The notes beneath the pieces were generated by a model. The model was not told the origin of the DNA, made no database searches, and saw only the letters and a program-made list of their open reading frames with translations. Position numbers and translations under genes: made by a program. A DNA stretch of 64,000 nt from sequence record MN850651.1. One strand, written 5' to 3'. Source of the DNA: Escherichia phage moskry. Of this stretch, positions 790-20,373 are shown piece after piece (position 1 is the stretch's first letter; each line of letters opens with the position of its first letter).

Positions 790-1779
790 TTATTTATAGT
801 AAGAATTATGATTTTCGAGATAGACTTGCTCAAGGAAATCATCCCAGAAACTCATATCTACTTTTTGTTGCATACCATTCTTGGCAGCTCGTTCTGATGC
901 TTGTTCAACTTGGTCAACGATATCTTCTAGGAATTCTTGTACAGTTTTAAACGTATGTTTACCAAGCTTAACATCGAGAATAAATGGAGCATCCTGAAGT
1001 GGGTAAACCAGGTCGCCGGTTTTGTAAATTTCTAATAGTTGAAGTCCACCACGACATGCATGACTCAATGCTTTCCAGTCAATACCTTCGTTGGCTTCTG
1101 CCTTACGAGCACGTTCACCATAGTTCTCTTCCAGTTTAACCAGGATGGCATTGAACTCTTTATTGGTTAACGTGTCTTGGAACTTACGGTCTAACAGATT
1201 ATAGAATGTTTGCTTACCTGTTTTCTCGTTTTCGGTTTCAACCCACGAAGCAAATTCACCTACAGGCAGAACATTCTTCATATGTGATAAACGAATTACT
1301 GCACCATTATCAAAGTATTGTCCCCATTCATTAGAACGTTTAAGGGCTTGACGAAGAACAGCCAGTCGAGAACCCTTGACACCGTATTTAGAAGCTTGCT
1401 TACGGACATACCCTAAATAAGATTTCATGTTAGTGGTATAGAAACGAGACCTGTTATCTTGAATATACTTCCATACATCAGGCAAATCAGATTTAACTAC
1501 TAGACTTTGTGGAGTGTGAAGCATATCTAATGCGACGGTTTCACCATCCGTAGCTAGTTTAAAGAAATATTTGAGACTATACAACTCATGGTCCACGTCG
1601 TCTTTTGTGTTCTTAGAAGATGTGTTATTCGTGTTCTTGCTCATATGTTCTTTAACGTTACCGGTCAAGATATCACGAGCATGAGGGACATAAATTTCTT
1701 TAAAATCAACGTCAGATTCTGGGGTAGACGTTCCATAAAGGTGGCTACCAAAGTAGCCTTTCATAATTGTTTTCATCAT
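790..1779 (-). CDS. Pol-beta-type nucleotidyltransferase-like protein
   Basis: 329 aa; ATG ATG start; N-terminal motif YFGSHLYGTSTPESDVDF fits the GS-x(9-13)-DxD signature of the nucleotidyltransferase fold. Confidence 0.55.
   Translation of the reverse strand: MMKTIMKGYFGSHLYGTSTPESDVDFKEIYVPHARDILTGNVKEHMSKNTNNTSSKNTKDDVDHELYSLKYFFKLATDGETVALDMLHTPQSLVVKSDLPDVWKYIQDNRSRFYTTNMKSYLGYVRKQASKYGVKGSRLAVLRQALKRSNEWGQYFDNGAVIRLSHMKNVLPVGEFASWVETENEKTGKQTFYNLLDRKFQDTLTNKEFNAILVKLEENYGERARKAEANEGIDWKALSHACRGGLQLLEIYKTGDLVYPLQDAPFILDVKLGKHTFKTVQEFLEDIVDQVEQASERAAKNGMQQKVDMSFWDDFLEQVYLENHNSYYK
791..798 (-). promoter_or_regulatory. Candidate late promoter (TATAAATA on minus strand)
   Basis: Plus strand reads TATTTATA about 33 nt upstream of ATG 758; matches T4 late promoter consensus. 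Confidence 0.35.
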
Positions 1780-5144: not shown

Positions 5145-5347
5145 GTCACCTTTAAGCAATATTCTTCTACATGTTGTTTACGGCCTTTCTTATCAATAAA
5201 GGTATATTCAACGAATGTTCCGATGTAGTCTTTATCTACATCATGTGGACTATTAATTGGACATTTAGTACGACAAATGCGTTCCCATTGACGAATAATT
5301 ACTGCCTTATTCTTTGGATCGTATGGATGTGGATAATGTATATTCAT
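5135..5347 (-). CDS. Hypothetical small protein
   Basis: ATG at codon 6 (5347) abuts the stop of the macro-like gene; 70 aa; Cys-x3-Cys pair. Confidence 0.4.
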   Translation of the reverse strand: MNIHYPHPYDPKNKAVIIRQWERICRTKCPINSPHDVDKDYIGTFVEYTFIDKKGRKQHVEEYCLKVTWL

Positions 5348-5841
5348 AATAACGGTTCCCAATCAACAATCACAATTTCTAGTTTAGTAGAATACGTATC
5401 TAAAATCTCTTCGATGACATCCCAGTTTCCACCACCAATACCTGCGCCAATTCTTGGCATATAAATTACAGGCTTTGTTATCTTATTCTTTCCGAATTCA
5501 TTTAATTCTATTATACAATTCATTAAAGCAGAGTACTCAAAATTAGGTCCAGGCTCAAACTGCGTATAAAGATTAAAGCAATAAGCTTTATGGGTCTTAA
5601 AATATTTTTCATAAACCGAATAAGACCCGAGTTTAGACTCGTCTCCATATGCAGTTTGAAGTTTATCGGCTTCCAGAATTTTTGGATAAGCCTTTGCTAA
5701 TTGTCCTGCCACACCGGCGCCCATTGTATGAAAACAATTACACCCATGAGCAATATTATTACCTTTAGAAAACAGGGCGACAATATCGCCCTTGATATAG
5801 TTTTTAATCACTTGCTGCAAGTCCTCTATTATAAGAGTCAA
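5344..5841 (-). CDS. Macro-domain-like protein (possible ADP-ribose binding/hydrolase)
   Basis: Motifs NIAHGCNCFHTMGAGVAGQL and PRIGAGIGGGNW resemble macro-domain Gly-rich loops; start is TTG 5841 or GTG 5811, no ATG. Confidence 0.45.
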   Translation of the reverse strand: MTLIIEDLQQVIKNYIKGDIVALFSKGNNIAHGCNCFHTMGAGVAGQLAKAYPKILEADKLQTAYGDESKLGSYSVYEKYFKTHKAYCFNLYTQFEPGPNFEYSALMNCIIELNEFGKNKITKPVIYMPRIGAGIGGGNWDVIEEILDTYSTKLEIVIVDWEPLL

Positions 5842-7217: not shown

Positions 7218-7427
7218 TTATTCTTGGAATGGTGTGAGTTTTCCAGCTATCGAACAAATTTCTACCATTGCAGGATAAAACTCTTTCACTTGTTCAAGGC
7301 GCTGGACAGCGTACCGCATTTCGCCTTCTTCAAGACAAGCCACCTGGTCATCGAGCAAATATTTATGGTAACCAGTACAGGCTTCACTAATGATACGTTG
7401 GAATTCTTGCAAACTTTCAATTTTCAC
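7218..7427 (-). CDS. Hypothetical small protein
   Basis: 69 aa; apparent GTG start with SD GAGGA 9 nt upstream. Confidence 0.4.
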   Translation of the reverse strand: MKIESLQEFQRIISEACTGYHKYLLDDQVACLEEGEMRYAVQRLEQVKEFYPAMVEICSIAGKLTPFQE

Positions 7428-7693
7428 TAGTATTTTTCCTCAGGTCGAAATACTGCACGACACGCCCACATGCTGGCTTCTTTTAGATGTTGCTTAGCGT
7501 ACTTAAGAGCCTGCACTGCATCCATATCTTCTTTGGTTTGTTGCTCTGTTTCGTTTTCTTTCAAGATATATGCTTCTTCAATCAGAGCATCAAACAACAA
7601 TCCAAGACGGACTTCAGCATCTTTAATAGCGTTCACTTTACCGATTTTATCATCAGTATGCGGCTTGTAGCCTTTGATGTCTTCAATCGACAT
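7427..7693 (-). CDS. Hypothetical protein
   Basis: ORF track starts at TTG 7861; ATG at codon 57 (MSIEDIKG) fits the overlap with the upstream gene; 88 aa. Confidence 0.35.
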   Translation of the reverse strand: MSIEDIKGYKPHTDDKIGKVNAIKDAEVRLGLLFDALIEEAYILKENETEQQTKEDMDAVQALKYAKQHLKEASMWACRAVFRPEEKY

Positions 7694-7907
7694 AAGGAAT
7701 TTCCTCATCAGTGGCAAGGTCATATTCGACCAATTGGATAGGCTCATTAATACCATATCCACGTACAGTGATATCAGTTGTCGGATAGTTTCCAGTAATA
7801 TCACCCATTCTAAATGATTCAATGAATGATTGCTCGCCTGAGCAACTAAACCAGGCGGCAAAACATTTTAAAACATCTTCAGACCCTTCTATAATCAATT
7901 TAGCCAT
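7683..7907 (-). CDS. Hypothetical small protein
   Basis: 74 aa; ATG overlaps the stop of the GrcA-like gene. Confidence 0.4.
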   Translation of the reverse strand: MAKLIIEGSEDVLKCFAAWFSCSGEQSFIESFRMGDITGNYPTTDITVRGYGINEPIQLVEYDLATDEEIPYVD

Positions 7908-8269
7908 TATAGACTCTCAGTAAAGGTACGAGCGATAACGTCGCGCTGCTGTTCTGGAGTCAGAGAGTTAAAGCGAACTGCATAACCGGATACACGAATG
8001 GTCAGCTGCGGATATTTTTCCGGATGCTTAACTGCATCTTCCAGAGTTTCACGACGCAGAACATTAACGTTCAGGTGTTGACCACCTTCAATTTTAACTT
8101 TAGGTTGATGTTCAATTTCAATTTCACGGGCATTCAAACCGTAGAAAATTTCCGGGTCTACAATAGCGTCTTCTTTAAAAGTCTTAGAGACAATAATCCG
8201 GGCTTGAGTACCGTCTTCAAAATAAATAGTGCCTTTGTGTGTGCCTTCAAGAATTTGATATGCTTTCAT
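7907..8269 (-). CDS. grcA: Autonomous glycyl-radical cofactor (GrcA/YfiD)-like protein
   Basis: 120 aa; ATG with SD GAGG; C-terminal about 60 aa ([60 protein letters not shown]) matches recalled E. coli GrcA, including the RVSGYAV glycyl-radical motif. Confidence 0.8.
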
Positions 8270-8275
8270 ATAACC

Positions 8276-8584
8276 TCAATTAGAAAATAAATTTATCCAA
8301 GTTTTTTCTTTAATCAAAAATGGGTCGGAATTAAACGCCATTAAACTTTGAGTGATTAATCCCTTAAATGGCCCATCAATAAATTCCATTTTGAAATGTG
8401 GAATACTAGTCATCAACCGTGCATTAGGAGCAGTACAAAGAACCTGCTGCCCTGCGAACGGACCTTTAGTCAAACGATATCGTTTAGGTTTAAAATGGTA
8501 AATCTCGTAATTTTCTACAAGGGCCCTTTTATTGCATACTGGGCTGTTATAACAATACTCAAAAACTTCAATAGTGGTCATCAT
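8276..8584 (-). CDS. Hypothetical protein
   Basis: ORF 8276..8632; ATG pair at codons 17-18 adjoins the stop of the upstream gene; about 102 aa. Confidence 0.4.
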   Translation of the reverse strand: MMTTIEVFEYCYNSPVCNKRALVENYEIYHFKPKRYRLTKGPFAGQQVLCTAPNARLMTSIPHFKMEFIDGPFKGLITQSLMAFNSDPFLIKEKTWINLFSN

Positions 8585-9120
8585 TGCATTCCAATCACAA
8601 AAAATTGAGGACGAGCAATACCGCCGTTGCAATATTTACTTTTGCAACAGTGTTGGACTGTTTTAATATGGATGTCGTAAATCTTATCCATATCAGGAGC
8701 TTTAATAGGCTCGTCAATTATATACAGAATACGAGAAAGCGTTAATCCACGGAATTTATGTCCTTCATTACCAATAAAACTACGGACAGAATCAGTAAAT
8801 AAACGGAATCGAATATCATCGCTAGAATAACGAGAAAATTCTTTTTCAATGTTGCCAGCAGAAATTTTAGCATAAGCTGAAGTATTAGAAAGAACAATAA
8901 CTGTTCCACCATCATACAGCCAATTAGCAGCAAAATTAGTTACTGCGGTCGATTTACCTGATTGTCTGCCGCCGTCTAAACGAAGTGTACAGTACTGCTT
9001 GAGTACGTCTTCGAATGGTGGGATATAACCGTTCTTACAAATTTCTTCTACTCTAGCATCAGAATGGTGTGTAAAAGCATTCATCAGGGATAGATAAGGA
9101 CCAGTTAAAAATGTTCTCAT
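8581..9120 (-). CDS. P-loop NTPase or kinase-like protein
   Basis: 179 aa; ATG start; Walker A LDGGRQSGKST. Confidence 0.5.
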   Translation of the reverse strand: MRTFLTGPYLSLMNAFTHHSDARVEEICKNGYIPPFEDVLKQYCTLRLDGGRQSGKSTAVTNFAANWLYDGGTVIVLSNTSAYAKISAGNIEKEFSRYSSDDIRFRLFTDSVRSFIGNEGHKFRGLTLSRILYIIDEPIKAPDMDKIYDIHIKTVQHCCKSKYCNGGIARPQFFVIGMQ

Positions 9121-20216: not shown

Positions 20217-20293
<77 letters not shown>

Positions 20294-20299
20294 AATATA

Positions 20300-20373
20300 T
20301 GACCCAGACCAGATTCGAACTGGTAACCTTTCCCTTATGAGGGGACTGCTGCTAACCATTGAGCTACAGGGCC
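20300..20373 (-). tRNA. tRNA with CAU anticodon (Ile or Met type)
   Basis: 74 nt; T arm ACCAG-TTCGAAT-CTGGT; anticodon loop CTCATAA; acceptor GGCCCTG/CTGGGTC with one mismatch; CCA not encoded. Confidence 0.65.

Follow-up and report, generated by a model that had tools for sequence, protein, structure and literature searches.

A T-even phage glycyl-radical cofactor gene, vs.6, with a tail probably converted from host grcA and a parallel in Klebsiella phages

The closest described relative of the gene analyzed here is Y06I of phage T4. Like YfiD/GrcA of E. coli, Y06I is reported to receive a radical from PFL-AE, to bind pyruvate formate-lyase (PFL) after its cleavage by oxygen at Gly734, and to restore its activity; the account in PMC8683613, which cites Wagner 2001, gives this restoration by Y06I as an in vitro result. 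E. coli GrcA (YfiD; crystal entry 6owr) is itself a stand-alone glycyl-radical protein. For the evolutionary process, a described counterpart is found in the cyanophage genes psbA and psbD, in which intragenic recombination between host and phage has produced patchy GC content and segments exchanged with the host copy (Zeidner 2005; Sullivan 2006, PMC1484495). GrcA homologues are present in 1,588 phage records. Those of RB16, Slopekvirus, Karamvirus, Krischvirus, the T5-like Demerecviridae and the T4-like phages of Aeromonas and Vibrio end in the same conserved tail with the RVSGYAVRF motif as the protein described below, but they are without a host tract at the nucleotide level and their synonymous sites are saturated. 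In T5-like phages of Escherichia and Salmonella, the gene adjoins tRNA genes.

The DNA studied here, a stretch of 64 kb that is called the window throughout, comes from an RB69-like T-even phage (Mosigvirus); many phages, RB69, ESh15 and phiE142 among them, share 97-98% identity with its region 7400-8800. We consider it probable, at roughly 85%, that vs.6/Y06I is a spare glycyl-radical part for oxygen-damaged PFL, that its tail was converted from E. coli grcA, and that the phages of Klebsiella provide an independent replicate of this conversion.

The gene and its product

A reading of the window from its sequence only had recognized a GrcA-like gene whose C-terminal 60 residues match GrcA/YfiD and whose N-terminal half is divergent, and both observations were borne out. 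All of the last 60 residues (60/60) are identical to those of E. coli GrcA, the RVSGYAVRF motif is present (Table 1), and Pfam Gly_radical (PF01228) matches residues 59-101 with an E value of 2e-18 (67.3 bits against a cut-off of 22.2). Gly95 aligns with Gly102 of GrcA and Gly734 of PFL, and the Vs.6 tail also aligns with the PFL C-terminus (residues 696-759) at 75% identity (48/64 residues). The homology extends beyond this PFL-like tail, as the alignments with 6owr and NCBIfam TIGR04365 (GrcA/YfiD family, IPR011140) show that the GrcA-specific N-terminal region is present in Vs.6. The best PDB match in phmmer is E. coli GrcA 6owr (residues 21-120 against 27-127, E 2e-42), and phrog_1209, the group of T4 Vs.6/Y06I, covers the whole protein (residues 1-120 against profile positions 1-121, E 6e-63). 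TIGR04365 gives 159.1 bits (residues 18-120 against 23-126), slightly short of the equivalog cut-off of 170 bits, a shortfall due to divergence in the N-terminal half of Vs.6; residues 1-60 are ~30% identical to E. coli GrcA, and this half is 7 residues shorter. The RefSeq name of the T4 orthologue is nonetheless 'autonomous glycyl radical cofactor GrcA', and the exact protein of the window has already been deposited as 'autonomous glycyl radical cofactor' for several phages. The gene, its family and its biochemical function are thus already known, and the annotation adds nothing new.

Table 1. Features of the vs.6 locus and other genes of the window mentioned in the text (window coordinates)
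Feature	Position	Strand	Basis
vs.6, orthologue of T4 Y06I; autonomous glycyl-radical cofactor of 120 aa, GrcA/YfiD homologue	7907..8269	-	open reading frame, homology and synteny
Phage-type 5' part, gene nt 1-178 (residues 1-59/60); N-terminal GrcA region, old and diverged	8092..8269	-	
Putatively host-derived tract, gene nt 179-353, residues 60/61-118; encodes the glycyl-radical domain	7917..8091	-	
Phage-type 3' end with the final codons and the stop (G AGT CTA TAA)	7907..7916	-	
RVSGYAVRF glycyl-radical motif, residues 92-100	7970..7996	-	read from sequence
Gly95 codon, GGT	7985..7987		
Putative Shine-Dalgarno sequence of vs.6, GAGG; overlaps the vs.7 stop codon TGA (8276..8278)	8274..8277	-	sequence read; function predicted
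vs.5, downstream gene translationally coupled to vs.6; not host-like, end of host homology	7683..7907	-	
vs.4, two positions downstream of vs.6	7427..7693	-	
nrdC.11 homologue	790..1779	-	
tk.4 homologue	5344..5841	-	
Adjacent tRNA-Arg(tct) and tRNA-Met(cat)	20217..20373	-	

The reading frame is small and stands alone (~14 kDa), with its own start, stop and Shine-Dalgarno sequence, and consists essentially of the glycyl-radical domain; the gene order vs.8-vs.7-vs.6-vs.5-vs.4-regB is conserved with RB69 and T4. Unlike E. coli grcA, vs.6 depends on phage signals for its expression and has brought along neither promoter nor terminator from the host, and a promoter and terminator scan of 6.5-10.5 kb returned counts equal to the shuffled expectation. 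T4 Y06I resembles the gene of the window in its position between vs.7 and vs.5, its length of 120 aa, its E. coli-derived tract and its left junction, with 95% amino acid identity. The two proteins differ at 6 residues in the N-terminal half; within the tract, T4 carries R73H, whereas the window keeps the host residue. The right-end codons are GAA AGT TTG in T4 and GAG AGT CTA in the window, which also has 3 private synonymous changes. Some records assigned to Salmonella enterica, to E. coli and even to Enterococcus faecalis hold identical or near-identical Vs.6 proteins; the contigs measure ~165-169 kb or 410 bp, and the most likely explanation is that the bacterial assemblies include T-even phage DNA.

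Several other genes of the window deserve a brief mention. The product of vs.4 has a Pfam match to Acb2_Tad1_hairpin (1.5e-17), the family to which the anti-CBASS cyclic-nucleotide sponge Acb2 belongs, and the dS of this gene to T4 vs.4 is ~2. The nrdC.11 homologue matches the RlaP nucleotidyltransferase family of Pfam (1.7e-12), and the tk.4 homologue carries a Macro domain. The two adjacent tRNA genes are the sole tRNA genes in the window.

Mosaic structure and the Klebsiella parallel

As the sequence-only reading had expected, nucleotide identity to host grcA is far higher in the 3' part of vs.6 than in the 5' part. Gene nt 1-178 are ~53% identical to E. coli grcA (81/153 aligned bases, codons 1-60), and the last 55 nt upstream of the junction match at 29 positions, whereas the tract at gene nt 179-353 is identical at 172 of its 175 positions; the junction at 178/179 is sharp, and the contrast in identity between the two parts has a Fisher p of 1e-24. 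The three tract differences, at gene nt 207, 273 and 315, are all synonymous and private to the window. The higher GC content that had been seen in the 3' half is also real (0.482 in the tract against 0.356 in the 5' part), so that the tract ranks within the top ~1% of the sequence's 168-nt windows. The accompanying description of its codons as host-like held for leucine, all five Leu codons of the tract being CTG against 9% of Leu codons phage-wide, but not for the overall codon-preference score under the phage's own usage, which is no outlier (43rd percentile) because the high-expression codons of E. coli and the preferences of T-even phages largely coincide. When the whole window was compared by megablast with 5,426 complete E. 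coli genomes, the tract was the sole match.

The tract ends a few bases short of the stop codon. The three sense codons that close the gene, GAG AGT CTA in the phage and GAA AGC CTG in E. coli, are synonymous, and the GAG AGT CTA ending is common to RB16 and Slopekvirus; beyond the stop codon of E. coli grcA, the phage sequence is unrelated. The vs.6 stop overlaps the vs.5 start codon (TAATG), and the GAGAG at the 3' end of vs.6 probably serves as the ribosome-binding site of vs.5, a site that is annotated at the same position in phages pKp20 and Miller. The 5' part, for its part, tracks phage phylogeny: its identity to the window's is 98% in RB69, 90% in T2/T4, 72-75% in Jiaodavirus and Karamvirus and 58% in RB16.

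Among 81 host grcA genes, the tract of the window is nearest to that of E. coli (pS 0.07), followed by the cryptic Escherichia clade (0.12) and then by an unclassified Proteobacteria MAG and Pseudocitrobacter (0.34-0.37). In other phages the match to E. coli grcA is as close or closer (phiE142 175/175, T2 172/172, T4 177/178), and the pS of the phage tract is 0.00-0.07 to E. coli, 0.31 to Citrobacter and 0.60 to Salmonella. The gene pflB was rejected as a donor, its nucleotide identity being only 79.6%. These comparisons uphold the proposal that the gene had recently acquired host sequence in a mosaic fashion (pS 0.07 in the window and 0.00 in sister phages), with two qualifications. The event is not specific to the source phage, as an E. 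coli grcA query retrieves 624 phage records at least 95% identical to it, and the tract is a property of the Tequatrovirus/Mosigvirus clade. Moreover, the alignments indicate that part of an older full-length phage homologue of grcA was replaced, and not that unrelated parts were fused.

A parallel is found in the Klebsiella Jiaodaviruses, which are sister to the T-even coliphages and whose vs.6 head is 72% identical to that of the window. Their gene nt 181-338 match K. pneumoniae-type grcA at 157/158 positions in an IMG/VR contig (L119) and at 155/158 in phage pKp20, but E. coli grcA at 86%. The K. pneumoniae-type reference is the gene on three human-associated metagenome contigs, the GrcA protein of which is exactly GRCA_KLEP7 (K. 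pneumoniae complex). The right junction, at nt 338/339, lies ~15 nt upstream of that of the coliphages. Searches with the two host genes separate the phages accordingly: the K. pneumoniae-type query returns 106 Klebsiella-phage records at 95% or more, with coliphages at 85-88%, whereas the E. coli query places Klebsiella phages at 85-89%. With Salmonella grcA, no phage exceeded 90%, and no third host-specific tract was found there. Since both the donor and the right junction differ in Jiaodavirus, these alignments indicate at least two host-to-phage conversions at vs.6, the donor in each case being the host of the phage concerned.

The GrcA tails also vary at the protein level, with LEDAVK in the phages of E. 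coli and LLDAVE in those of Klebsiella, even where the DNA is unrelated. The heads of Slopekvirus 05F (Klebsiella) and RB16 are 80% identical, and their tails differ at exactly the two residues that separate LLDAVE from LEDAVK; the match to the host is thus in the protein and not in the DNA, which suggests either that exact imitation of the host is selected for or that conversions took place long ago and their traces in the DNA have decayed.

Number of conversions and role of the product

We propose the following course of events. An old full-length grcA homologue in the phage family would have been the starting point, and in Tequatrovirus and Mosigvirus, gene nt 179 to ~353 would have been replaced via homologous recombination (gene conversion) with the chromosomal grcA of E. 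coli. The right junction would have fallen just short of the stop, leaving the phage's own last codons in place, perhaps because these hold the vs.5 ribosome-binding site. Mimicry of the host GrcA tail would keep enough homology for the phage to recombine with host DNA fragments, and the replacement would have been confined nearly to synonymous sites because the phage tail had already been selected to copy that of the host. If so, vs.6 may be a standing hotspot of host-to-phage conversion, its homology kept by mimicry and its tail overwritten repeatedly by the host, a proposal to which we give even odds.

The main alternative is that the coliphage tract was gained once and then passed on by phage-to-phage recombination and descent, with no repeated conversion by the host; we regard this as a serious possibility, although short of an even chance. 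The left junction is common to the 624 coliphage records: among the matches listed, all alignments begin at grcA nt 200 (205 in one record). Such sharing would be expected from a single event, but the common junction sits exactly at the start of phage-host homology (GAAGGTGG, residues E-G-G-Q), so that it would coincide even in independent events and does not prove a single one. The three changes private to the window likewise fit a single gain in that they match no E. coli allele; a search of the 5,426 E. coli genomes found no allele that carries them (best 96.8%), and they are therefore later phage mutations and not evidence of a separate donor.

The divergence between the window and T2/T4 bears on the same question. 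In the flanking genes (vs.1, regB, vs.4, vs.5 and vs.7), dS is 0.9-2.0 (1.5-1.8 in vs.5), in the 5' part of vs.6 it is 0.39 and in the tract it is 0.07 (tract versus head, p 0.008; head versus flanks, p 0.004). The tract, being far below both head and flanks, is thus younger than the split between Tequatrovirus and Mosigvirus, which means that either more than one conversion occurred or a converted allele moved between phages. The reduced divergence of the whole gene fits the second of these, a lateral movement between phages. It extends to the phage-type 5' part when compared with the flanks at 7683..7907 and 8276..8587, and could reflect lateral movement between genera, perhaps seeded by the host-identical tract, or an unusual constraint.

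Against a single gain stand the Jiaodaviruses, whose other donor and other right junction show that the process recurs. In addition, the three end codons of the Tequatroviruses mix host and phage states in every combination, and at third codon positions RB69 and one Tequatrovirus (L098) show states that are also found segregating in E. coli grcA. In the coliphages, these observations, which comprise three end codons, one hot third-position site and dS on ~40 synonymous sites, are suggestive of repeated conversion but not decisive, as the same pattern could result if one converted allele had spread between phages. The Tequatrovirus OES_C-2 shows a further arrangement: its vs.6 lacks 6 nt in the 5' part, encodes 118 aa and continues as E. 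coli-type sequence through to the stop except for GAA>GAG, a right junction unlike those of T2, T4 and the window.

As to function, the rescue of oxygen-damaged PFL that the sequence-only reading had suggested was already in print for the T4 orthologue. By analogy with T4 Y06I, and with a radical domain identical to that of the host, the protein of the source phage would be expected to act in the same way. Host PFL-AE would place the radical on Gly95 of Vs.6, and the activated protein would dock on host PFL cleaved at Gly734 and bring its activity back, so that fermentation to acetyl-CoA and formate may be sustained in infection after the shut-off of host expression. The phage would supply the protein itself, since an infected host no longer expresses its own genes.

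A different role in vivo, such as rescue of NrdD, the phage's anaerobic ribonucleotide reductase, or a decoy action that titrates PFL-AE or PFL to redirect host metabolism, is unlikely in our view. NrdD is likewise cleaved by oxygen at its glycyl radical, and close relatives of the source phage encode NrdD and NrdG; in RB69, nrdD and nrdG lie ~15 kb upstream, whereas nrdD is absent from the window. Our literature search yielded no infection phenotype for vs.6, which leaves room for such roles. However, Vs.6 has no significant similarity to RB69 NrdD (best BLASTP E = 11), and the suggestion of the sequence-only reading that the protein could rescue this enzyme is consequently left without support. 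The tail is instead identical to that of host GrcA and close to PFL 696-759, it follows the host GrcA variant (LEDAVK or LLDAVE) as would fit a host partner, and T4 Y06I is reported to restore PFL in vitro (PMC8683613).

Exchange, constraint and direction

The near identity of the tract to E. coli grcA could in principle have arisen with no recent exchange, if the whole gene had been captured long ago and purifying selection, together with a shared codon bias as in a highly expressed gene, had preserved its 3' half. Across phages and hosts the tail protein shows extreme conservation, and the overall codon preference of the tract is ordinary for the phage, both of which would be expected under such a history, but we consider it very improbable. 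The control is provided by RB16 and its relatives (L105-L107; Pseudotevenvirus, with E. coli hosts), the tail protein of which is identical to that of E. coli GrcA at 60/60 residues, as in Vs.6. Their tail DNA is only 83% identical to E. coli grcA, with a pS of 0.65 and saturated synonymous sites (p 4e-8 for the contrast), and protein constraint is therefore not the cause of the 98% DNA identity. Host genera that share the same tail protein likewise differ from one another by a pS of 0.3-0.6, the identity in vs.6 jumps from 53% to 98% at one position, and the Klebsiella phages match Klebsiella and not E. coli at synonymous sites. Together, the RB16 control and the host-specific tracts have effectively refuted long-standing constraint as the explanation.

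The other phage lineages resemble RB16 in this respect. In Karamvirus, Slopekvirus, Krischvirus, the T5-like phages and the T4-like phages of Aeromonas and Vibrio, the pS to every host gene sampled is ~0.4-1.0, and a search for a recent host tract in the tails of Slopekvirus, Karamvirus, Krischvirus and T5-like phages against 161 host grcA genes found none. One IMG/VR contig (L122, 19 kb) is ambiguous, lying between the saturated and the recent classes with a tail pS of 0.34 to Yersinia grcA; its tail may be an older conversion from a host of the Yersiniaceae.

That E. coli grcA instead received its 3' end from a T-even phage is scarcely credible: near identity alone gives no direction, but in comparisons with the grcA genes of other Enterobacteriaceae, tail and head of the E. 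coli gene have diverged to matching degrees (dS 0.05/0.07 for the Escherichia clade and 0.40/0.57 for Citrobacter), the tract is fixed in 5,426/5,426 E. coli genomes, its richness in GC and CTG is unlike the phage, and Klebsiella and its own phages repeat the pattern. In the phages, by contrast, the head and tail of vs.6 give discordant histories. Because the host tail matches the host phylogeny, is universal in E. coli and has a host-like composition, this discordance indicates that the transfer ran from host to phage.

A literature search found no description of a host-specific tract in vs.6 at the nucleotide level, although an earlier mention in Wagner 2001 or Miller 2003 is possible. The host-specific conversion thus seems undescribed at this level, whereas the original authors probably noticed that Y06I and YfiD agree in their C-terminal 60 residues. 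The evolutionary process is of the same kind as that in cyanophage psbA and psbD, and vs.6 shows what marks a mosaic of the psbA type, namely a one-sided sharp breakpoint, a control for protein constraint (RB16) and a donor that is the phage's own host. It differs from the cyanophage genes in that the phage is virulent, degrades host DNA, carries modified cytosine and infects an enteric host; in that the exchange is limited to one short tract (~160-175 nt) whose junctions are very clean; and in that the donors can be identified to species and the direction is clearly from host to phage.

The vs.6 tract therefore offers a clean, species-resolved replacement by the host copy in a virulent T-even phage, with the RB16 control and the Klebsiella replicate. 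If vs.6 is indeed a conversion hotspot, a tract of ~170 nt would track the main recent host species of a phage, with the E. coli type in Tequatrovirus and Mosigvirus and the K. pneumoniae type in Jiaodavirus, and the shared host-identical tract may seed recombination between diverged phage genera, making the whole gene younger than its flanks. If conversion is recurrent, fragments of host DNA would enter T-even recombination in nature despite the degradation of host DNA, the tract would be a short natural barcode of the recent host of a phage lineage, and contamination would not be the only explanation for high nucleotide identity to a host in metagenomic contigs or phage genomes.
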